From assembly GCA_947653235.1 (NCBI GenBank), contig CANTGH010000001.1:247191-311190 (forward strand): a DNA stretch of 64,000 nucleotides. The letters are read 5' to 3'. Position numbers and translations under genes: made by a program. The notes under the pieces are model-generated. The model saw only the letters and a list, made by a program, of their open reading frames with translations, ran no database searches and was not told the origin of the DNA. Below are positions 2,516 through 50,139 of this stretch, in pieces (position 1 is the stretch's first letter; every line of letters starts with the position of its first letter). The stretch is from an uncultured Clostridium sp. (lineage in GTDB: Bacteria > Bacillota > Clostridia > TANB77 > CAG-508).

Positions 2516-3658
2516 CTACAAATTAATAACTTGTTCCCAAGGCAAATCTGGTTTTCCAAAATGCCCATAATTGGTGGTTTTTCGATAAATTGGTTTACGC
2601 AAATTCAGTGTGTTCATAATGCCTCTTGGTGTCAAATCAAATGTTTTTTCAATCTTTTCGATGATTTCCTCTTCTGGAATTGTAGCTGTTCCAAAAGTAT
2701 CCACCAAAATAGAAACTGGTTTGGCAACACCAATCGCATAAGAAAGCTGAATTTCACATTTTTTCGCATAGCCATTTGCTACGACATTTTTAGCAACAAA
2801 TCTTGCCATATAACAAGCACTACGATCTACTTTGGTAGGATCTTTTCCCGAAAACGCACCACCACCGTGACGACTATATCCGCCATAAGTATCCACAATA
2901 ATTTTTCTTCCTGTTAATCCACTATCTCCCAAAGGTCCACCAATGACAAATCGTCCTGTTGGATTAATATAATATTTTGTGTTTTCATCTAATAATTCTT
3001 CTGGCACAATCGCCTCAATAACTTTTTCTTTGACATCTTTTTTCAAAACCGTCAAATCCGTGTCTTGCGTATGTTGTGTCGATACCACAATCGTATCTAC
3101 ACGAACTGGCTTATCGTCTTCATATTCTACAGTAACTTGCACTTTACCATCTGGTCTTATGTAATCCATTATGCCCTGTTTTCTAACTTCTGTCAATCTT
3201 TTTGATAATTTGTGAGCTAAATCAATTGGCATTGGCATAAAATCTGCTGTTTCATCTGTGGCAAAGCCAAACATCATGCCTTGATCACCTGCACCTTCTG
3301 ATTCTATCTTTTCTCCTTCTTTGTCTTCATATGACTTATCCACACCTAGTGCAATATCTGGGGATTGCTTTGAAATATTAATCAAAACCTTACATGTTGC
3401 ATAATCAATATCCACTTCCTTTTCATGATATCCCACTTCTTTGATGGCATCCCTTACCACTTTTTCTAAATCCACTTCTGCAATAGATGTAATTTCTCCT
3501 GTTAACAAAATTTGCCCTTTCCCAGCAACCGTTTCACAAGCCACTCTTGCATAAGGGTCTTTTTCAAAATAGCTATCTAAAACACTATCGGATATAAAAT
3601 CACATAATTTGTCTGGATGCCCCTCTGTTACACTTTCTGACGTAAATAATTTTTTCAT
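2516..3658 (-). CDS. metK: S-adenosylmethionine synthetase
   Basis: 380 aa with the [13 protein letters not shown]-terminus and MetK motifs throughout. Confidence 0.95.
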
Positions 3659-3694: not shown

Positions 3695-3852
3695 GATTTT
3701 TGGCAAAAAAACCTTTGCAAAATGCAAAGGTTAACATTTCGATTTTAAAAATCATCAGCCAAAGCATTGCTTTGTCGGTATTAGCACCTTAAAAATTCAG
3801 GTTGCTGTGGAGTCATAAAGCCGATTCTCTCGTCCACTCTTGATAACATATT
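3695..3852 (-). promoter_or_regulatory. SAM-I (S-box) riboswitch with expression-platform terminator in the metK leader
   Basis: The minus-strand RNA reads TTATCAAGAGTGGACGAGAGAATCGGC...CCACAGCAACC...AAGGTGCTAATACCGACAAAG, which contains the S-box hallmarks. It is followed by the hairpin AACCTTTGCAttttGCAAAGGTT plus a T-run, immediately 5' of metK. Confidence 0.8.
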
Positions 3853-4044: not shown

Positions 4045-4130
4045 TGCGATTATGTCGCAAAATAGCAAACGAAAGAAAAAACTAAAAAATCGGGATAATT
4101 TTTTGCTATTTTCGTAAAAAATCCTCTACC
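4045..4130 (-). ncRNA. candidate ~110-nt small RNA running from the copy-A promoter to the terminator
   Basis: A perfect extended -10 promoter at 4135-4163 is followed within ~100 nt by a strong terminator. The transcript contains an extended imperfect hairpin (CGAAAATAGCAAA ... TTTGCTATTTTGCG) and no ORF or RBS. Confidence 0.3.
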
Positions 4131-4212
4131 TTTTATTATATCACATTTACGTTAATTTGTCAACTTGACTTTTTGTAAAAACCTGCTCTCACTTGATTTT
4201 ACTCTGGTTTTT
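4126..4212 (-). repeat. conserved promoter-bearing repeat, copy A (TTGACA-N17-TGATATAAT)
   Basis: It shares about 90 bp with copies at 38445-38530 and 50045-50130. This includes the upstream block CAGTAAAAnCAAGTGAGAGCA, the palindrome GTCAAnTTGAC over the -35, and the transcribed start GGT(A/G)AGGnTATTTTT. Confidence 0.5.
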
Positions 4213-4220
4213 GGCTTTTT

Positions 4221-6908
4221 TTATTTTGTTTCAAACCAATTTTGTCCTTCCTGCAAATCTACTTCTAAATCAACTAACAAGTTCGCTGCTTTTTGCATAC
4301 AAGTTTTCAAAATTTGGCTGACTTCCTCTTTTTCCCTTTCTAATGCTTCTATAATCAATTCGTCATGAATTTGCAGTACCATTTTAGATTGCAACTTTCG
4401 TTTTTTTAGTTCTCGGTAGACATCAATCATCGCAATTTTCATAATATCTGCTGCGGTTCCTTGAATGGGTGCATTCATAGCCGCTCTATCTCCGAATTTA
4501 CGAACCATATAATTATTGGAACTGATTTCTGGAATGTATCTCCTGCGATGAAACATTGTCTCTACATAGCCATTTTGCTTTGCTTTTTCAATTTCTTGCT
4601 CCATAAATTTTCCAATTCCATGATATTGCTCTAAATAAGAATCAATATATTGTTTTGCTTCTTTTCTACTAATTCCTAGCTGTTCTGCCAACCCAAAATC
4701 ACTGATACCATATACAATACCAAAATTGACTGCTTTGGCATGACTTCTCATTTCCTTTGTCACTTCTTCAACTGGAACACCAAATACTTGCGAAGCACAA
4801 ATTTGATGAATATCATGATGTGCTGTAAATGCCTTTATCATCCCTTCATCTTGCGACATATGAGCCAAAATGCGAAGCTCAATTTGAGAATAATCCGCAT
4901 CTAAAAAAACTTTGCCTTTTTCAGCTTTAAATAATTTTCGAATTTGTTTTCCTAAGTCTGTTCTTGTTGGAATATTTTGCAAATTCGGATCCGTACTGCT
5001 AAGTCTTCCAGTTGCTGCAACAGTTTGGTGAAATGTTGTATGAATACGGTTCGTTTTTGGATTAATATAGGGTAACATGCCTTCGACAAATGTCGAATTT
5101 AATTTTGAAACTTGCCTGTAAAACAAGACTTTTTCAATTATTGGATGTGTATTTCTCAATTTTTCTAAAGTGTCAACATCTGTTGAATATCCATTTTTGT
5201 TTTTCTTTTTATATGGCAATTCTAGTTTTTCAAATAAAATTTCGCCTAACTGTTTGGGTGAATTGATATTAAATTCTTGACCAGCTAATTCATAAATTTC
5301 ATGACTTAATCCTTGAATCTGCTTTTTCAATTCTTGTGACATTTTTTCAATGTCGTCTTTATCTACTAAAACACCTGTATAACGCATTTGTGCTAGAATT
5401 TCTGCACTTGGCATTTCAATATTTCGAAATAAATCTAATTGTTTTACTTCTTTTAATTTTTGCTCTAAAATCAGCTTTGTTTCTCCGATTATGTAACAAT
5501 ACATAGCATATTTATAATCTGTTTTTTCTTCTTGAATTTCTTGATCAAAAAAGCTAGTTTGTATATCTTCTTTTGGTTCTTGCTGATAATAATCTTCTAT
5601 TTCTAGGTTTAACTGTTGTTTTGCAATTTCCTCTAAAGAATACAAATTGGATCCAGAATTTAATAAATACATAGCAATTTTGGCATCAAACATCATATTT
5701 TGCGGATTTAGTCCAGCTTGTTTTAATAAGATAAAATCCTCTTTTATTTCATATCCACATTTTAAAATTTCATTATTTTCAAAAATTGGTTTAAAAATTT
5801 CATTATCAAACGGAACACAATATACTTTTTTTTCAGATTTTAAGTAAAGATTTATTGTTTCAATTTTCTTTTTTATGATGAAAGCATCTGGATCCTCTAT
5901 CAATTCGAAATAATAGTATATTTCTTTTTGTTCATAAATTTTATCTAGTATTGACTGGGGTTGATTAGTAGGAATATAAATAAATAAATCTTCAAGCTTT
6001 TTAGTTGGCTCATTTTCTTCACTTTCTAACTGAAAACGTTCGATAAAGCGCTTAAATCGTAATTCTCTGAATAATTCTAAAACCGCAGGCTTATTCCAAT
6101 CTTGCACTTGAAAGGTAGCTAAATCTTTTTCAATGGGTGCTTTTTTATCAATGGTGCCAAGTGTTCTGGAAAGATAGGCTAATTCTTTATTTTCTAATAA
6201 TTTTTCTTTTTGTTTTCCTTTGATTTGTGTATCACCATTCTCAATAGCTTCATATAATTGGTCAATATTTTTGTATTTTTGTATTAGGTTTAAAGCCGTC
6301 TTTTCGCCAATTCCAGGTACACCAGGGATATTGTCTGAGGCATCTCCCATTAATCCTTTAACTTCGATTAATTGTTCTGGTATAATACCATAAGTTTCGA
6401 AAATTTTATTGGCGTCAAAATCTTCCGTTTCTGTTTTTCCTTGTTTGGTTCTAGGAATACGAATAATAACTGTATCTTTCGCCAGCTGAAATGAATCTCT
6501 ATCACCTGTTAGCAAAATAACTTTTAACCCTTGCTGTGCTCCCCAATCACTTAATGTTCCTAAAATATCATCTGCCTCATAACCTGATTTTTCAATGATT
6601 TTTAAGTTCATCGCCTCTAACACTTTTTTTATAATTGGCATTTGAGCCGCTAATTCATCTGGCATTCCTTTACGTGTTCCTTTGTACTGACTGTACATTT
6701 CATGCCTCTTGGTTGGTGATTTTACATCAAAGGCAACAACCAAATATTCTGGTTTTTCATCTTCTAAAATACGAAACAAAATCGTCAAAAAACCATAAAC
6801 TGCATTGGTATAAGTTCCATCTGCTGTCTGTAGCATTTTACTTCCCATGATGCCATAAAAAGCTCGATTTAAAATACTATTCCCATCAATTACAATCAAT
6901 TTCTCCAA
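4221..6908 (-). CDS. polA: DNA polymerase I
   Basis: 895 aa. It has an N-terminal 5'-3' exonuclease domain and a C-terminal polymerase domain (RRxAKAVNFGIVYGISDFGL, VLQIHDELIIE). Confidence 0.95.
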   Translation of the reverse strand: MEKLIVIDGNSILNRAFYGIMGSKMLQTADGTYTNAVYGFLTILFRILEDEKPEYLVVAFDVKSPTKRHEMYSQYKGTRKGMPDELAAQMPIIKKVLEAMNLKIIEKSGYEADDILGTLSDWGAQQGLKVILLTGDRDSFQLAKDTVIIRIPRTKQGKTETEDFDANKIFETYGIIPEQLIEVKGLMGDASDNIPGVPGIGEKTALNLIQKYKNIDQLYEAIENGDTQIKGKQKEKLLENKELAYLSRTLGTIDKKAPIEKDLATFQVQDWNKPAVLELFRELRFKRFIERFQLESEENEPTKKLEDLFIYIPTNQPQSILDKIYEQKEIYYYFELIEDPDAFIIKKKIETINLYLKSEKKVYCVPFDNEIFKPIFENNEILKCGYEIKEDFILLKQAGLNPQNMMFDAKIAMYLLNSGSNLYSLEEIAKQQLNLEIEDYYQQEPKEDIQTSFFDQEIQEEKTDYKYAMYCYIIGETKLILEQKLKEVKQLDLFRNIEMPSAEILAQMRYTGVLVDKDDIEKMSQELKKQIQGLSHEIYELAGQEFNINSPKQLGEILFEKLELPYKKKNKNGYSTDVDTLEKLRNTHPIIEKVLFYRQVSKLNSTFVEGMLPYINPKTNRIHTTFHQTVAATGRLSSTDPNLQNIPTRTDLGKQIRKLFKAEKGKVFLDADYSQIELRILAHMSQDEGMIKAFTAHHDIHQICASQVFGVPVEEVTKEMRSHAKAVNFGIVYGISDFGLAEQLGISRKEAKQYIDSYLEQYHGIGKFMEQEIEKAKQNGYVETMFHRRRYIPEISSNNYMVRKFGDRAAMNAPIQGTAADIMKIAMIDVYRELKKRKLQSKMVLQIHDELIIEALEREKEEVSQILKTCMQKAANLLVDLEVDLQEGQNWFETK

Positions 6909-7048: not shown

Positions 7049-8836
7049 CTAATTCGCTTTTCTGCCTTCCTTTCTTCCGAACATCATGTAATGTTCCAAA
7101 GCTCTTGAAAAATTAGAACCAAACTCGGCTTGTAAATCACCGTGATAACTTATATATTTTTGCACATTAAATGTGCTACTCGCTTGTCTTCCTTCATGAA
7201 TTCCGTTATTGACAAAATGGTTAAAGGCAGCTACATAATCTGAACTAAATGCTCTTTTCAAATCCGCATATTTCTCTAAATAATACTCTGGATCAAACAC
7301 AGGACTAGCACTGCGCCCTTCTCGTTTCCCACAAGCTTCATAATGTTCTTTTAAAGCCACTGCATTATTTCCAAAAGCTTGCTTTAAATCATTGTATTTG
7401 TTTGCATAATAATCAGCATCAAACAAATCATTGGCAATATTGATTGGTGGATCATTGATTGGTTGTCCACCTTCTGCTAACGCATAATATTTTATGTACT
7501 CTGTACCCAATCTTTTTTTAACATAACTACTTTGTGAATTGGCGTAATTTCTTACATTAAAATCTTTACTTCCTTGTCTTCCTTCTAAAGCACCAAATTG
7601 TACAAAATGGGACAAAGCACCTGTTTTACTAGCATAACAAGCTTTTTTCACATCTTCATTCTGATCCAAATAATAATTTACCAAAAAATATTTACTACCT
7701 TGTCTTCCTTCATAAATTCCATTGTTGACAAAATGATTAAAAGCTGCTACATAATCCGTTCGGAAAGCTTGTTTTAAATCCGCATATTGGTTGATATAAT
7801 AGATAGGATCAAAAGCTGGTGATGCACTACGACCTTCTCGTCTTCCGCAAGATTCATAATGTTTTTTTAACGCCGATGCATTGTTGCCAAACGTTGCCTT
7901 TAAATCTGGATAACGATTCGCATAATAAGTCGCATTAAACAAACATTCTGCTACATTAGCATGATGGTAAGAACGATAATATTGATAATCAATATCGACA
8001 TCCACTGGTGTACCAATTCCTGGAACACTTCCTTTATCTGTACATTGCCACATGGTATAATGTCCACCATAAGTTGGTCTATCAACATAATAATGCGCTA
8101 CCCAAACATCGTAGGAAGAACGCAAACTTGGACTCCAAGTATTATTTAAATAATTTGTACTACCATACAAAGATGATTTATAACCTCTGCTATTGACATA
8201 ATCTAAAAATACTTTGGCATTCGCATTTAATTGTGCATGCGATAACCCATTGGTTCGATAATTAGGTACATTATTAAAATATTCAAAATCATAAGCAATT
8301 GGGAATTTGACATCATACCCTCTGATTAAATCTAGCGTAACTGCTGCTTCTTGAAGAGCTTCTGCTTCGTTTAATGCTGTTGAGAAAAAGTATACACCAA
8401 CATAAATTCCGTTTTCTAGTGCCCCTTTTATGTTAGCTTCAAATTTCGGATCAATCGCAATGTTTCCTTCTGCTGCATAGCCTCTAAAAGCACATCGAAT
8501 CATCGCAAATTTAACCCCCGAGTCAGCAACTGCTTTCCAATTGATATCTCCTTGAAAACGTGAAACATCAATTCCAACTGCTGTTGTTTCATTTTGATAA
8601 GTTGCTATCAAACTTCCTATACTATCTCCTGATGAGCTTGTCAGCGTGGATGATGTCATTAATAATTTGATGTATAATGGATCCTCTTCTTCGTTTGATG
8701 ATACACTAACATCTGGCATTGTCGTTGTAATTCCTTCATAGGTAACTGTTTCGTCACTTGAAGTCGCTAAACAATTAACAGATAAACCTAGTAAGAATAG
8801 TAAAAATACAAATAAAATTCTTTTCTGTAATTTCAT
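7049..8836 (-). CDS. secreted GH25 family muramidase (lysozyme) with C-terminal tandem repeat modules
   Basis: 595 aa with a signal peptide. The GH25 core reads VGIDVSRFQGDINW...GVYFF, followed by about six modules of ~44 aa. Confidence 0.8.
   Translation of the reverse strand: MKLQKRILFVFLLFLLGLSVNCLATSSDETVTYEGITTTMPDVSVSSNEEEDPLYIKLLMTSSTLTSSSGDSIGSLIATYQNETTAVGIDVSRFQGDINWKAVADSGVKFAMIRCAFRGYAAEGNIAIDPKFEANIKGALENGIYVGVYFFSTALNEAEALQEAAVTLDLIRGYDVKFPIAYDFEYFNNVPNYRTNGLSHAQLNANAKVFLDYVNSRGYKSSLYGSTNYLNNTWSPSLRSSYDVWVAHYYVDRPTYGGHYTMWQCTDKGSVPGIGTPVDVDIDYQYYRSYHHANVAECLFNATYYANRYPDLKATFGNNASALKKHYESCGRREGRSASPAFDPIYYINQYADLKQAFRTDYVAAFNHFVNNGIYEGRQGSKYFLVNYYLDQNEDVKKACYASKTGALSHFVQFGALEGRQGSKDFNVRNYANSQSSYVKKRLGTEYIKYYALAEGGQPINDPPINIANDLFDADYYANKYNDLKQAFGNNAVALKEHYEACGKREGRSASPVFDPEYYLEKYADLKRAFSSDYVAAFNHFVNNGIHEGRQASSTFNVQKYISYHGDLQAEFGSNFSRALEHYMMFGRKEGRKAN
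7052..7939 (-). repeat. intragenic tandem repeats (~130-bp units) encoding the Y-x-DLK-AFG-N-ALK-HYE-CG-REGR modules
   Basis: Protein-level repeats such as YYANRYPDLKATFGNNASALKKHYESCGRREGRSASP recur about six times. The repeats are also visible at the DNA level. Confidence 0.5.
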
Positions 8837-8959
8837 ATTATTTTCCTCCTTTTTTTATTATTTTTATTATATCACTTTGATTTTTGCATGTAAAGTTTTT
8901 TCATTTAATTGTAAAAAAAAGTAATCTTAAATTTACAATTGATTTATTATGTATATTTT

Positions 8960-10291
8960 TTAGCCATAGCGATATTTCTTTCGATTACCAATCAAAAATG
9001 CGTAGCTAACACCCAAAGCTAATATTTCAGCAATCACCACTGCCAGCCAAATTCCATTTAAGCCAAATAAAGCTGGTAATAAGAAAATCATAGCCACTTG
9101 GAATACTAACGTTCGTAAAAACGAAATCACAGCAGAAATCAAGCCATTATTCAGGGCCGTAAAGAAAGACGAACTAAAAATGTTAAACCCACTAATAAGG
9201 TAAGACATAGCAAATAAACGAATGGCTGTTGTCGTCATTTGTAACAATTCTGCATCATAGCTAACAAAAATCGAAGCCAATAAACGAGCTGATATTTCTG
9301 CCATTCCTGTCATCACAAGAGAAGTGACAGCCATTAGGCGAAAACTTTTTTTCAGCAAATTCTTGAGTTCCCCCGTATTTTCTGCCCCATAATGATACCC
9401 TACAATCGGTGCTGTTCCAATGGAATATCCCAAATAAGTTCCAACAAAAATAAAACCAACATACATAATAATCCCATATGCCACCACTCCATCCGATCCA
9501 GCATACTTCATAAGTTGCCTATTATACAATATATTGACAAGTGACATCGATATATTATTCAACATTTCCGAAGAACCATTGGTACAAGCCTGCCAAATCG
9601 CTTTTGCGTCAAATTTTGCCTTTCTTAATTGAAAAGGACTTTGATTTGGCATAATAAAATAAATGAGCGGAATACATCCTCCCACCAACTGGCTAATACC
9701 TGTTGCCAATGCGGCTCCCAATACCCCCATGTGACATACATACATAAATATAAAATCAAGCAACATATTCATCACACCTGTGATGATGGAAATCACCAAA
9801 CCAAACAGAGGTCTTTCAGCCACAATCAAAAAACTCTGGAAACAGTTTTGCAAAGCAAACGGAACCAAAAAAATAAGAATTGTCCTTCCATATGTTACGC
9901 AATCTTTTAGCATATCGTTATCAGCGCCTAGTTTTAATGAAATCGTTCTCATGAAAGGAAAACCAATCACCGAAAAAATTACGCTAATTAAGACAATTAA
10001 GTAAATTAACATAGAAAAATATTCATTCGCTTTTTCAGTTTTCCCTTCTCCTATTGTTTTTGAAATCAAAGCACTTCCACCTGTTCCAAACATAAAACCA
10101 ATGGTCCCTAAAATCATCAAAGCTGGCATGATTAAATTAACTGCTGCAAAAGCATCTGCCCCCACGCAATTGGCCACAAAAATTCCGTCGACCACACCAT
10201 AAATTGAGGTAAATATCATCATAATGATGGTTGGAATAGTAAATTTGATTAGTTTTGTATATGTAAAATGTTCTGATAATTGTATTTTCAT
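8960..10291 (-). CDS. MATE family efflux transporter
   Basis: 443 aa with about 12 TM segments and a MATE-type N-terminus (FTIPTIIMMIFTSIYGVVDGIFVANCVG). Confidence 0.8.
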   Translation of the reverse strand: MKIQLSEHFTYTKLIKFTIPTIIMMIFTSIYGVVDGIFVANCVGADAFAAVNLIMPALMILGTIGFMFGTGGSALISKTIGEGKTEKANEYFSMLIYLIVLISVIFSVIGFPFMRTISLKLGADNDMLKDCVTYGRTILIFLVPFALQNCFQSFLIVAERPLFGLVISIITGVMNMLLDFIFMYVCHMGVLGAALATGISQLVGGCIPLIYFIMPNQSPFQLRKAKFDAKAIWQACTNGSSEMLNNISMSLVNILYNRQLMKYAGSDGVVAYGIIMYVGFIFVGTYLGYSIGTAPIVGYHYGAENTGELKNLLKKSFRLMAVTSLVMTGMAEISARLLASIFVSYDAELLQMTTTAIRLFAMSYLISGFNIFSSSFFTALNNGLISAVISFLRTLVFQVAMIFLLPALFGLNGIWLAVVIAEILALGVSYAFLIGNRKKYRYG

Positions 10292-10396
10292 TTTTTCCTC
10301 CTTTTGTTATTATTCGATGAGCATCATTTTTCTCTTAATTTGTCATTTCTTTTTTCTAAACCAATATGACAACCTTTTATTCTGCCCCTTATTTTA

Positions 10397-10888
10397 TCAA
10401 TTTGTTTTCTTCATAACAATATGTGTATTGGTTTCCTCTATTTTCTCAAATCCCATTCTTTCATATAATTTTATCGCAGGATTATGTTTAAAACATTGTA
10501 ACATAATGTTTTTTCCTTTATTCTCCATCAGTATCTTTTTTAGTATAGCTGTTCCAATGCCTCTTTTTTGATAGGCTGGTTTTACACAAATATTGCCAAT
10601 TTCAAAAGTACACTCATTCGTTTCCTTTCCATTCCAAAAGCCAACTTTTTCATCTTTTATCAAAATAAACTGTATGTTTTTTTCATTTTCTTTCCAGAAG
10701 CACTCAAACAACTTCTTCTGATTTTCCTCTTGCCATTCTCCAAAATATGCTTCAACATATTTTGAATAAACCTGCTTTTTCAAATCGTAAACAAACTGCC
10801 TTTCCTCCTGATTTGTACTCTTAATCGGTCTTACCTTCAGATCAACTACCGCCCAATTAAATTTATCATTTTTTCTTACCATTTCCAT
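10397..10888 (-). CDS. GNAT family N-acetyltransferase
   Basis: 163 aa with the acetyl-CoA binding motif QKRGIGTAILKKIL...ERMGFEKIE. Confidence 0.8.
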   Translation of the reverse strand: MEMVRKNDKFNWAVVDLKVRPIKSTNQEERQFVYDLKKQVYSKYVEAYFGEWQEENQKKLFECFWKENEKNIQFILIKDEKVGFWNGKETNECTFEIGNICVKPAYQKRGIGTAILKKILMENKGKNIMLQCFKHNPAIKLYERMGFEKIEETNTHIVMKKTN

Positions 10889-10898
10889 TCTTCTTTCT

Positions 10899-10935
10899 AC
10901 AAATTTTAAACTGGAACCCGCAAAGCAAGTTCCAG
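10899..10935 (-). terminator. hairpin terminator downstream of the GC-rich gene
   Basis: CTGGAAC-loop-GTTCCAG followed by a T-rich stretch on the minus strand. Confidence 0.45.
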
Positions 10936-10963
10936 CTCGTTTCTGAAAGTTCGGTCAGTGCTA

Positions 10964-11776
10964 CTAATCAAGCCCAAGCTGTCCAAGACCTCCATAGTCA
11001 TCAAAGTCTACATCGAAATTGTGACTTAGGTCGGCAAGCGAACCGTCGTCGCCACCGTAATTGAAGTTACCACCAGCAACCCAAAAGCCACCAGCCTTCT
11101 TCCATGACTTCCATGAATCTTCTGCAAGCATTTTATACACGTTTCCCAGATCATAGAAACCGCAAACTTCTCGGCTTCCTGTTACCTCAAAGCCATTTTT
11201 AGCATTGTCAGAATCCGCAAAGTGTCCAAGTTCTGATGAATGGTCACATACCGCATCCCACGCCGCTTCAACAGAAACTTTTTTCCAAGTTACAAGCCGC
11301 CTGATCAATTCCAAATTTTTATTTGCGCCCTCTGTTCTTGTCATCACTCTACTGTTCCGCTCTGGTGCATAATTTTTCAAGATAGTTACCCAATCGTTGT
11401 AGGATTTTCCTACCGCAGGCGGTAATCCCGGCTGATACACCAATTCTCCCGTAACTGGGTCAAAGGATGGATCAATCGCCATGCAAGTAAAGGCATGCAA
11501 CCTCCCTTTGGCTCTGGCATTCAAAAACAGCTTCTTTGTTTTGTTCTGTCTGTCAGTTCTTGGCTCATATTGTAGCCAATCCGCATCCGTCTGAAAGGCC
11601 AAAGGATCAATCCGCCGTTCAAACTCGCTTCGCGGAAGATAGATTTTCTTCTCTGGCACAATAAATGCAGGTGCTGTATCAAACTCCAGCTTAATTTTAG
11701 TTGCGTCCTTCGGCACCATTAATTCAATAGACCGTCTTTCAGAAGCTTTGTATTCCATCTTTGCTGTGTTTTCCAT
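10964..11776 (-). CDS. hypothetical protein of atypical (high-GC) composition, likely horizontally acquired
   Basis: 270-aa ORF at about 45% GC against a ~30% GC background. It uses CGG/GCG/GCC codons that are otherwise avoided in this window. It is driven by a consensus promoter and has the RBS GGAGG. I recognise no family. Confidence 0.6.
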   Translation of the reverse strand: MENTAKMEYKASERRSIELMVPKDATKIKLEFDTAPAFIVPEKKIYLPRSEFERRIDPLAFQTDADWLQYEPRTDRQNKTKKLFLNARAKGRLHAFTCMAIDPSFDPVTGELVYQPGLPPAVGKSYNDWVTILKNYAPERNSRVMTRTEGANKNLELIRRLVTWKKVSVEAAWDAVCDHSSELGHFADSDNAKNGFEVTGSREVCGFYDLGNVYKMLAEDSWKSWKKAGGFWVAGGNFNYGGDDGSLADLSHNFDVDFDDYGGLGQLGLD

Positions 11777-11845
11777 ATTTTTGTCCTCCTTAATTTTATT
11801 GGTAAAATCTTTTAGATGAAATCATATATATTACTATATATAATT

Positions 11846-11875
11846 ATTATACCATATTTTACATAAAATTGTCAA
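11846..11875 (-). promoter_or_regulatory. sigma-A consensus promoter (TTGACA-N18-TATAAT) for the GC-rich gene
   Basis: On the minus strand: TTGACAattttatgtaaaatatggTATAAT, followed by GGAGG and the ATG. Confidence 0.45.
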
Positions 11876-11934
11876 GAAACTTGAAATCAATTGTTAATTA
11901 TAATGTGATTATACTATTCCTAGATTTTTTCTTA

Positions 11935-12468
11935 TTATTTTTGTAAATACCTCTCCTCCTCCGAAAACACACACCCACAATACTTCTGTCGATATAGTCC
12001 CAGTTCCTTTGCCTTATTTTGTCCTTCGCGAAATCCTAGGCGAAAATCACGATACAAAAATTTCACACCGTATTTTTCCGCCATTTCTTCACAAACCACC
12101 TTAATTGCTTCATGATTTTGATAAGGACTCACAAACAACGTCGTACAAAAAGCATCATACCCATTTTCCTTCGCATATTTAGCCGTTTCCTCCATACGCA
12201 CTGGATAACAATACTTTTGACAACGATTTTCCAAATCAGTCACCACAGATTTGCAAAACTCACGAAGTCCATAATTTTCATTTACAATCAGCTCCAAATC
12301 CACCATTTGACTATATTCCACCATCGTATCTCTTCGCATTTTATACTCCATAAATGGATGAATATTCGGATTAAACCAATACGCTACTGGCTCTATTCCC
12401 TCTTTTCTTAAACTTTCCACACAATACACGCTACAAGGCGCGCAACAACTATGTAATAATACCTTCAT
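11935..12468 (-). CDS. queH: epoxyqueuosine reductase QueH (DUF208)
   Basis: 177 aa with the LLHSCCAPCS N-terminal Cys motif and conserved C-terminal cysteines. Confidence 0.8.
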   Translation of the reverse strand: MKVLLHSCCAPCSVYCVESLRKEGIEPVAYWFNPNIHPFMEYKMRRDTMVEYSQMVDLELIVNENYGLREFCKSVVTDLENRCQKYCYPVRMEETAKYAKENGYDAFCTTLFVSPYQNHEAIKVVCEEMAEKYGVKFLYRDFRLGFREGQNKAKELGLYRQKYCGCVFSEEERYLQK

Positions 12469-12480
12469 TTTCCCTTTCCT

Positions 12481-13914
12481 TTACCTTTTTTCATAGACTT
12501 CAAAACAACTCATAACTGTCTCTACTTTTTCATAATGCTCGGCCACATATTCATAAACTTCGCTATACTCCTGAAAATATCTATAATTTGTCATCATAAT
12601 TGGCGTATCTTCCAACTCTTCAATCGCCTCTATGATTTTTTCCTTGCCATGCAAACCCACATTTCCTCTTAGTGGCAAATCTAAAATACCATGCTGAGTT
12701 CCCAATCTTGCCTGATACAAATACACTTCTGGCGATACCAACACAACTTCCTTCTCTCTCATATACGCCACAACATTTTCTATTTTACCATTGATTTCTT
12801 CTTGATAAACTGCTCCAAAATACGGATCCATCTTTTCTTTAATACGATAGGTATACCAATTAGCTATGTTTTTCGAAGTCATCACACAAACATAACATGA
12901 AACAATAAAAAGCAAGCTATTTTGAAATAAATTTTGTTTACTCGTTTTTTGATTCGTCCAACTAAAAAACGAAACCAAACTAAAAATCAGCGCCATTTTA
13001 GAATGAAATTCACACAAAATCGGATACGCAATCAACAACATTATCACTGAATAAAGAAACAAAATCTTTTGTTCCACCTCCAACTTCTTCTGATTCCACA
13101 GAAAAATCACAGGCACTACATTCACCAATACCAAACCAATCACATAACTTTCCATCGTTGCATTTTGCCTAAATTCCAACATCCCCAAAAAAGCATAATC
13201 GATAAATTCATACAACGAGCCAATCCCCCATAAATACGCACAATAAACCAACATGCCAATCCCAATTGGCAAACTATACCAACCCCAATATTTGATTTTA
13301 TCTTTCCATTTTTCACTTCTCAAAAAAAGTTCACAAATCGCTGTTGCTAAAAAATGATACACCCCAATAGTTTGTTTGGTCATAAAAATCAGAAAAAGCA
13401 AAATCCCCTGTTGGATGTAAAATTTTCTATCTCTTTCTCCCTTTTCCAAATATTTCAGAAGTGCCAGTAAAGATAAACCAATAGCCAACATATTATAATT
13501 GGCTGAAACCGCCATAACTTCTTTTAAAAACAAGGTCATAAGCAACAAATCGAGAAAAATAGCCAATTTAGACACTTTCCTTTGGCGCAACAATTGAGAC
13601 ACAACCCCATACAAAAACAACCAAATTCCCACTGCATACAGGCGAAAAACAAAATAGTTGACACCAAATATTTTTAAAATCACTGCTCCTACATAAAAAA
13701 ACAGCGGTGTTACTAACACATTGATGTCTTTGTAAATCGTAAGTCCATCCGCCATCTTCTTGGTTTCATTAAATAATGTAGATTCATCATTTTGCTGAAT
13801 GGGTTGGTTGAAAATGATACCAAATACCATAAGCCCAAAAATCAAAATCCATAACATTTCACTTTTGTGAACCAACACGGTTTCTTTTAATTTTTTCATG
13901 TTTCTATCCTTCAT
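12481..13914 (-). CDS. polytopic membrane protein, possibly a GT-C type (ArnT/PMT-like) glycosyltransferase
   Basis: 477 aa. There are about 11 TM helices followed by a ~120-aa soluble C-terminal domain. The family assignment is a guess. Confidence 0.5.
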
Positions 13915-38401: not shown

Positions 38402-38440
38402 TCGCACAAAAAACGGAAATAACTAAAATTATTTCCGAAA
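38402..38440 (-). terminator. promoter-proximal hairpin plus U-tract immediately downstream of the copy-B promoter (terminator/attenuator)
   Basis: The minus-strand RNA reads CGGAAATAA-uuuuag-TTATTTCCG followed by TTTTTTGTG, about 15 nt after the predicted +1. Confidence 0.5.
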
Positions 38441-38444
38441 AATA

Positions 38445-38530
38445 CCCTCACCTTTTATTATATCACATTTTCTATCTTACGTCAAGTTGACGAAATAGTA
38501 AAAATATGCTCTCACTTGTTTTTACTGGGT
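38445..38530 (-). repeat. conserved promoter-bearing repeat, copy B (TTGACG-N17-TGATATAAT) upstream of recD2
   Basis: Nearly identical to copy C over about 85 bp. Confidence 0.5.
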
Positions 38531-38542
38531 TTGCTGTTCTTT

Positions 38543-47299: not shown

Positions 47300-47380
47300 T
47301 TTACATAAAAAACTCTACTTTTTATTATATCATATTTATGTAAATTTATCAACTTGACTTTGTGACCCAAATATGCTATA
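47300..47380 (-). repeat. partial copy D of the conserved promoter repeat (TTGATA-N17-TGATATAAT); a + strand TTGACT-N17-TATAAT shares the palindromic -35
   Basis: It shares the TTATTATATCAtATTT, TCAACTTGAC and AAATATGCT blocks with copies A-C. Confidence 0.4.
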
Positions 47381-49971: not shown

Positions 49972-50044
49972 CCCTTTTATAGAATGGCGTTTTTTTTGAT
50001 TATTTATGCAATTTACTATATTTTTTGCTTTGAGAGAGCAAAAA

Positions 50045-50130
50045 TACCCTCACCTTTTATTATATCATATTTTCAGACTTATGTCAAGTTGACGAAATGG
50101 CAAAAATATGCTCTCACTTGATTTTACTGA
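50045..50130 (-). repeat. conserved promoter-bearing repeat, copy C (TTGACA-N17-TGATATAAT)
   Basis: See copy A. Confidence 0.5.
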
Positions 50131-50139
50131 TTTTTAGGA

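Follow-up and report, generated by a model that had tools for sequence, protein, structure and literature searches.

What kind of gene is the GC-rich open reading frame of 270 amino acids that stands out in this DNA of an uncultured Clostridium sp., and how did it come to lie beside a GNAT gene (10397..10888 by Pfam)? We followed up this question in a window of 64,000 nucleotides, which is the whole stretch of DNA that was analysed. An earlier note on the same DNA had proposed a recently acquired foreign gene under a perfect consensus promoter, possibly with a defence, toxin or phage-derived function. Much of its description holds: the frame exists as described, the promoter matches the consensus at 12 of 12 positions, Pfam agrees on the neighbouring GNAT gene, and no other 813-nt segment of the stretch is as rich in GC as the frame, at 0.449 compared with 0.325 for the window (z = 3.8). 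The family was also rightly called unrecognised, as searches of Pfam, PHROGs, NCBIfam, PADLOC and PDB sequences name no family for this frame. Our answer to the question is a different one and involves a diversity-generating retroelement (DGR), a system in which error-prone reverse transcription alters the tip of a binding protein. The frame is very probably the gene of a DGR variable protein whose cis cassette is gone and, with only slightly less confidence, the locus as a whole is best explained by a DGR variable protein whose cis machinery was deleted and which was left with a fixed allele of its variable repeat. The features on which this reading is based are compiled in Table 1.

Table 1. 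Features of the locus, in positions of the window. Homology statements refer to the related locus L007 unless another locus is named; VR and TR are the variable and template repeats.
Feature	Position	Strand	Basis
ORF of 270 aa with ATG start, read as the DGR variable (target) protein	10964..11776	-	ORF list; L007 orthologue P0002 followed by bAvd, RVT_1 and TR
Sigma-70-type promoter, TTGACA-N18-TATAAT, extended -10 TG	11846..11875	-	12/12 matches
Ribosome-binding site AAGGAGG, 8 nt 5' of the ATG	11785..11791	-	Seen directly in the sequence
N-terminal ~44 residues, low-confidence and family-variable, without signal peptide or TM segment	11645..11776	-	pLDDT 39-50; alignment columns
Predicted FGE-type C-type-lectin (CLec) fold domain, residues ~45-270	10967..11644	-	
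VR	10971..11099	-	Aligns with the L007 template repeat, 10273-10401
Diversified VR codons, residues 237-263	10988..11068	-	
IMH-like conserved VR 3' end (GGTCTTGGACAGCTTGGGCTTGATTAG)	10964..10990	-	TR/VR homology ends here; L041 identity returns to 100%
Post-stop motif TAGTAGCACTGACCGAAC	10949..10966	-	Conserved after the stop in most family loci
Hairpin with a 3-nt loop on a 14-bp stem that includes G-U pairs; UUUAAAAUUU follows	10908..10938	-	MFE fold, z = -2.5
Relic of avd, its first 23 nt (ATGGTAAGAAAAAATGATAAATT), which serve as codons 3-10 of the GNAT ORF	10860..10882	-	Unbroken homology with L007 into avd
GNAT-MatE-GH25 block, in place of avd-RT-TR and three small ORFs of L007	6932..10859	-	Synteny breakpoints; Pfam
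Whole exchangeable module: last ~5 codons of queH, then spacer, ORF, IMH, motif, hairpin, RBS and avd relic	10860..11948	-	Sliding identity with L007

The nature of the gene is revealed by its relatives. At L007, which has the same LigA-RuvB-QueH...PolA synteny, the homologue P0002 is 80% identical to the window protein and is directly followed by bAvd and an RVT_1 reverse transcriptase (RT), and the RT in turn is immediately followed by 129 nt that repeat the 3' end of the gene. The two copies show 19 mismatches, of which 18 fall at adenines of the RT-proximal copy and the other one at the 3' boundary, where the gene reads ...CAGCTTGGGCTTGA and the copy ...CAGCTTGTGCTCTA. A repeat pair that differs almost only at the adenines of one member is the signature of a DGR, so that the 3' end of the gene is the VR and the RT-proximal copy is the TR. 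Mismatches at TR adenines number 17 of 19 in L017 and 17 of 17 in L029, and the family has the gene order target-avd-RT-TR, which places the TR behind the RT. Compared with the L007 TR, L044, a second copy in the same assembly, has 22 differences, including 19 at TR adenines, and the window VR has 27, including 18 at TR adenines, mostly in AAY codons; the remaining differences of the window VR are of the synonymous type and match other TR variants. At the protein level, the L007 TR encodes AGGFWAAGGNFNNNSNNNPLADLNHNINVDNDNNYGLGQL and the window VR reads AGGFWVAGGNFNYGGDDGSLADLSHNFDVDFDDYGGLGQL, altered mainly at the AAY codons. In the relatives carrying the element, which provide the evidence for this step, a cDNA is copied from the TR RNA with errors at adenines and then takes the place of the VR. 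Each replacement re-randomises about 17-19 AAY-type codons, and targeting makes use of the conserved VR 3' end (IMH), the conserved post-stop motif and the hairpin.

The family comprises 57 clusters among the 5.8 billion proteins searched, and none of them has a Pfam domain. All 27 genomic loci have chromosomal contexts in MAGs of uncultured gut Clostridia (human, rabbit, mouse and ruminants). The family alignment defines a conserved core with DPSFD, PAVGKSYNWW and TGSREVCGFYDL, in which Cys177, Ser180, Glu197 and Asp209 are invariant, while the C-terminal ~40 residues form a hypervariable stretch with abundant N, Y, D, S, G and C between GGFW.AGG and (V/L)G.L.L. No signal peptide or TM segment was found in the window protein, whose maximal Kyte-Doolittle(15) value in the first 40 residues is 0.56. 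With the family alignment as input, AlphaFold2 gives a model with a mean pLDDT of 80.7 and values above 90 for most of residues 50-180. The best structural match to this model is a DGR variable protein, and Foldseek gives the same set of structural matches. The model thus predicts an FGE-type CLec fold, of which the VR would form the C-terminal part. This link is visible only by fold comparison: single sequences and the family profile both gave blanks against Pfam and PDB sequences, and the protein is unrecognisable as a CLec-fold DGR variable protein by sequence methods. It represents a new, unannotated sequence family of a known kind.

Two characterised DGR variable proteins help to place this family. 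TvpA (Treponema denticola variable protein 1, PDB 2Y3C), which belongs to a DGR with remote targets, shares 11% identity with the window protein, with no detectable sequence relationship. TvpA is a lipoprotein, whereas our family lacks a signal peptide; also unlike the TvpA DGR, the window copy is without its cis machinery. TaqVP of Thermus aquaticus (PDB 5VF4) is larger (381 aa), is 21% identical over the aligned part, and belongs to an intact DGR in an unrelated host.

The hairpin downstream of the gene had been described as a terminator. The structure itself is present, but the consensus scan for an intrinsic terminator (a GC-rich stem-loop directly followed by a T-run) made no call, the tail being UUUAAAAUUU. 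Most family loci, also where no RT lies nearby, share the consensus TA(A/G)(A)GTAGCACTGACCACTG directly after the stop codon, with a GC-rich hairpin behind it; in the alignment with L007, the motif of the window shows substitutions and a deletion of 3 nt. Across 10 loci, 3 of the 14 pairs of the hairpin show compensatory double changes and almost none is broken, other loci have different GC-rich hairpin sequences in the same place, and L007 carries the same hairpin between the target gene and avd. In phage BPP-1, the IMH and a downstream hairpin are required and sufficient for targeting, and it is the structure of the hairpin, not its sequence, that matters (Guo et al. 2011, PMC3240598). By analogy with that system, we favour reading the supposed terminator as a DGR target-recognition hairpin that possibly also acts as a weak terminator; the lack of a call by the scan, the covariation, and the place inside the target-avd operon of the relatives all favour the recognition role over that of a plain terminator. 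The likeness to the Bordetella phage DGR (Mtd, Avd, Brt, TR, IMH and hairpin/cruciform) has its limits. In our family the TR lies after the RT instead, the hairpin has a longer stem (9-14 bp) with G-T/G-U pairs and a TTT(T) loop instead of a GRNA loop, it stands ~25 nt after the stop without a (GC)14 tract, and the context is chromosomal without phage genes.

Neither an RT nor Avd nor a TR was detected by tblastn and blastn-short in the 64-kb window, where the VR itself is also unrepeated. Starting at the 3' end of queH, homology with L007 extends through the promoter, the ORF, the hairpin, the RBS and 23 nt of avd, where it stops, and it resumes 83 nt upstream of polA (breakpoints 8913-12250 in L007 and 10859-6932 in the window). 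The 23 nt are native to avd, because the same Avd start, M[EV][RG]KNNEL, is found in L007, L016, L019 and L029, which represent four unrelated contexts. They are foreign to the GNAT gene: in L046 and L047 queH is directly followed by the GNAT gene, which is read in a single frame and has its native N-terminal region, ...TEKKIRLGW-V.NLELKPYKNGNQ, and the window GNAT aligns to it only from NW-AVVDLKVRPIKS. This position of the GNAT gene, directly after queH in these other relatives, marks the module as an insertion. The locus is most economically explained by the insertion of a DGR module between queH and the GNAT gene and a later deletion of avd-RT-TR up to the GNAT gene. Synteny shows the insertion after queH; the subsequent deletion of the avd-RT-TR half, likewise shown, has left 23 nt of avd, which now serve the GNAT gene as RBS, start region and first codons. 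The adjacency of the GNAT gene, natively linked to queH, is a by-product of the deletion. The relatives differ in how much of the element they retain: L017 and L029 have an intact RT, in L007/L013 a 7-nt insertion has shifted its frame, and in L016 and L019 it is truncated; L020, L028 and L034 have avd remnants only, and ~20 loci have nothing within 10 kb.

The module has also moved between genomes. Identity between the window and L007 is 76% in queH, rises to 97.5% in the promoter spacer from ~15 nt inside the 3' end of queH, and amounts to 87% in the ORF outside the VR, 77% within the VR and 92% after the stop. In a sliding comparison it increases from ~0.76 to at least 0.93 at ~11948, and the homology ends at 10860. 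The 158-nt promoter spacer is 97.5-98.7% identical between genomes whose queH genes are 76% identical, and the dS of the ORF outside the VR (0.34; L007) is about five times lower than that of QueH, RuvB and LigA (1.7-1.9). The identity jump, the low dS of the ORF and the insertion after queH thus show a horizontally mobile module and in this respect bear out the horizontal acquisition that the earlier note had suspected; its use of the high GC content as a sign of recent arrival does not stand, for reasons given below.

A second allele of the gene is found in close relatives. L041 and L042 share with the window a block of at least 7 kb that is 99-100% identical, with the same junction between the avd relic and the GNAT gene and a flank dS of 0.02. 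Their ORF is 90.6% identical to that of the window outside the VR (dS 0.22) and 73.5% identical within it, and the divergence of L041 is confined to ~11948..~10990, with a mosaic interior. Mosaicism extends to the neighbourhood, as the polA gene of L041 is itself a 75% allele. Between the two alleles of the variable-protein gene there are also differences at VR positions that are not adenines (GCC/GCT, GAC/GAT and AAT/AAC), and these match different TR variants. These non-adenine differences, the 9.4% divergence outside the VR and the sharp boundaries at the queH end and the IMH argue for replacement by alleles of different donors and not for retrohoming from a single TR. New variation would accordingly reach this locus by recombinational replacement of the segment from the promoter to the IMH, not by retrohoming.

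The composition of the gene requires a separate explanation. Its GC3 is 0.42, compared with 0.244 +/- 0.055 in the 41 other ORFs of the window (z = 3.2). The enrichment in CGG pointed out in the earlier note is real, as 5 of the 15 Arg codons of the ORF are CGG and the other ORFs have 4 in 16,093 codons; that it is the only in-frame user was slightly overstated, because four other genes have one CGG each. These codons sit where close homologues have Arg, as at R140 in PERNSR, so that the standard code applies and recoding or unassignment of CGG in the host is ruled out. The family gene is ~0.10-0.16 in GC above the host flanks in nearly all of 29 other loci. Orthologues of similar composition at the same locus, which the earlier note had named as evidence against recent arrival, were found in part: the L007 gene has a GC content of 0.44 in a locus of 0.31. 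Within single operons, the target gene has a GC content of 0.40-0.44 (GC3 0.33-0.38), and avd and RT have 0.20-0.27 (GC3 0.11-0.25). As the excess is family-wide, high GC is a trait of the family and no sign of a recent arrival of this copy. With the codon preferences of the host, the window protein would have an expected GC content of 0.388, against the observed 0.449. About half of the excess is due to amino-acid content (rich in A, D, G, P, R and W, poor in I), and the remaining half is synonymous, chiefly in G-ending codons. Adenine-specific erosion of the whole gene is ruled out as the cause, since A3 and T3 are both depleted at third positions and G3 is doubled. The elevated GC3 is not accounted for by the DGR model.

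Against this background, the proposal that the frame is a foreign gene of recent arrival, tied to the GNAT gene and having a role as toxin, in defence or derived from a phage, is largely refuted, and we consider it highly improbable. Its atypical composition and CGG use, its own strong promoter, and its insertion after queH in a segment more recently shared than the flanks would all fit such an origin. However, PADLOC gave no match for the ORF or the GNAT protein at E <= 1, PHROG gave none for the ORF, a search of IMG/VR returned no relatives of the family, and the neighbours of the ORF are housekeeping genes. The uniformly chromosomal contexts in gut Clostridia, the family-wide GC elevation and the origin of the GNAT adjacency by deletion speak against it as well, and both fold and context are those of a DGR variable protein. 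We give equally little credence to the view that the protein is an FGE-like or sulfoxide-synthase-like enzyme whose likeness to DGR targets is only that of a shared fold. The four family-invariant residues, Cys177 among them, could be taken as a hint of catalysis, but the FGE-sulfatase model PF03781 does not match the window protein at E <= 0.1 or 26 family members at E <= 1, and no other enzyme HMM matches in the family even at E <= 1. In FGE proteins the active-site residues sit in the C-terminal region. Unlike the FGE superfamily (PF03781; EgtB, OvoA, PvdO), our family has in that place a hypervariable, non-catalytic segment that is rewritten by the retroelement, and the best structural match remains a DGR variable protein, which is how we read the frame in what follows.

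The more serious alternative concerns the present state of this DGR variable-protein gene: only the local machinery may have been lost, and a DGR outside the 64-kb window may still diversify the VR in trans. Remote targets are documented for chromosomal DGRs (PMC5758913), and within the family L044 is a remote target of the L007 TR, to judge from its mismatches at TR adenines. The IMH, motif and hairpin are kept here and in ~20 loci without an RT, the promoter and ORF of the window are intact, gut metagenomes abound in RTs of this clade, with more than 3,000 clusters, and two alleles with strongly different VRs and a dN/dS above 1 occur in a near-identical background. Set against this, 7 loci that carry the window allele and come from different samples all have the same VR, among them strains whose flanks differ by 0.4-1% and one locus with the substitution M144L outside the VR, so that the VR stayed constant while the flanks and even the non-VR part changed. 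The differences between the two alleles at non-adenine positions and outside the VR, with their sharp boundaries, and the 3-nt deletion that the window shows in a post-stop motif conserved elsewhere also argue against continued diversification. We therefore regard a live remote target as unlikely, and lean towards the reading, which we hold to be somewhat the better supported, that no DGR acts on the window gene any more and that it is orphaned and frozen. This applies to the window allele; a VR uniformly frozen in the species was discarded, because L041 and L042 carry the second, deep allele. When a degenerate pattern was used to look for a cognate TR in JGI metagenomes, IMG/VR and the fetched loci, only the VR copies themselves were returned, and as the VR too is absent from JGI and IMG/VR, this result is uninformative.

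In the relative, P0060 and P0002 are distinguished by six residues, all in the 3' half of the VR. Five of them correspond to AAY/CAC codons of the TR and one to a TAC codon, and all of these differences need changes only at TR adenines. The comparison of L013 with L007 is uninformative as proof of active diversification, since both are the same strain (1 mismatch in 5,918 nt). Between alleles, dN/dS is 0.21-0.35 outside the VR and 1.3-2.9 within it, which indicates that the scaffold is under purifying selection and that the VR carries the diversified codons. The outcome of this history in the window would be a gene with a fixed VR allele and its own consensus promoter, whose non-VR part is under purifying selection, and the protein would be a ligand-binding protein with one frozen specificity.

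A further and tentative proposal, doubtful when taken as one joint claim, would connect the exchange of alleles with the composition of the gene. The segment from the promoter to the IMH may be a portable allele cassette that gives genomes without the retroelement a second-hand hypervariation, by homologous replacement from DGR-bearing relatives, and the GC excess of the family (~+12 points over every host and ~+18 over its own avd and RT) may be selected or mechanistically imposed on DGR targets in AT-rich genomes, instead of being a trace of origin. The recombination arms of such a cassette would be the near-invariant promoter spacer and the IMH/hairpin region. To our knowledge, a gap of ~18 points in GC between the target gene and the avd and RT of one operon has no description for DGRs, and it raises a compositional question for these elements.

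These results assign a function class, a mechanism and a history to a family that is annotated nowhere. They also provide a caveat for genome scans, in that the half of a retroelement that survives can look like a foreign gene without a known function. The loci form a decay series that leads from the intact DGR through the frameshifted RT, the truncated RTs and the avd remnants to the 23-nt relic, along the whole of which the targets are intact, expressed and under purifying selection. The series bears on the question of a continued function in variable proteins whose diversification has stopped, and on the upkeep of their variation through allele replacement.

The comparison of the window with L041, a locus that has a nearly identical background and a different allele of the target gene, shows that the identity of the two sequences switches sharply at the start of polA (~6850). 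The polA genes themselves (window 4221-6848 and L041:6158-8104) share only ~75% identity, while the adjoining ~7 kb are 99-100% identical. A second divergent patch, at 8650-8950, covers the N-terminus of the GH25 gene and the spacer. Among the flank genes, GH25 varies most between strains (96% identity, 10 gaps); it contains a 251-nt internal repeat, whose copies at 7177-7427 and 7693-7943 are 75% identical, plus 74-nt units. The gene for a 477-aa membrane protein, which is present in the window and absent from the ruvB-queH position of L007, the locus of the closest relative bearing a diversity-generating retroelement (DGR), is a further indel of this mosaic neighbourhood. In two relatives with the GNAT gene directly after queH (L046:8001-8792 and L047:8001-8792), the GNAT domain and the C-terminal half of QueH share a single reading frame, whose 263-aa product matches PF02677 and GNAT families. 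The arrangement suggests that queH and GNAT are natively linked or fused, or else that queH is frameshifted.

The coordinates of the remaining features of the window are compiled in the table. The intergenic repeats, which sit 5' of several minus-strand genes, hold TTATTATATCACATTT, the palindrome GTCAAGTTGAC and GCTCTCACTTG, and by their sequence they look like a common promoter or operator region. The S-adenosylmethionine synthetase gene (2516-3658) is preceded by the SAM riboswitch; the Rfam scan of the window at the gathering score gave no matches beyond this riboswitch and the L10 leader.

Features of the window, with their positions and characteristics
Feature	Position	Strand	Characteristics
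Intergenic repeat family	38438-38532, 50040-50134, 4118-4221, 47307-47364		~60-95 nt; <=89% mutual identity
GH25 lysozyme-like gene	7049-8836		internal repeats
SAM riboswitch	3749-3849	(-)	Rfam, 74 bits
Ribosomal protein L10 leader	57839-58019	(-)	Rfam, 49 bits
477-aa polytopic membrane protein	12481-13914		between ruvB and queH; weak DUF2142 match

The assembly that contains L007 has a second copy of the target family (L044:7759-8552, also L014), broken into ORFs of 85 and 183 aa, and this split is a frameshift or a pseudogene. Its variable repeat still matches the L007 template repeat, with 19 of the 22 mismatches at adenines, and the post-stop motif and hairpin are retained. At another locus of the family, L009:10778-10890 (L015 alike), the motif that follows the variable repeat is tandemly duplicated (…GTGTAACACTAACCACGG…hairpin…GTGCAACACTGACCACTG…), an arrangement that resembles a junction of two target 3' ends.

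In L007 the reverse transcriptase (RT; L007:9267-10268) is interrupted at about codon 32, where a purine run has gained 7 nt; L013, from the same strain, carries this insertion as well. At this site L007 reads GGAAAAAGGGAAAAGGGAAAAG and two other loci of the family, L016 and L017, read GGAAAAAGAGAAAAG; as a result, the RT body is read in a different frame from the true N-terminus, MPKTIRNVYEQ.... The L007 DGR may be recently inactivated too, or reliant on slippage.

In the protein database, the 337-aa RTs of these DGRs form a very abundant clade: >3,000 clusters match at E <= 1e-40, and >100 of them share >=70% identity. The target-protein family comprises only 57 clusters; therefore, the RT/Avd type of these DGRs must serve further target families.
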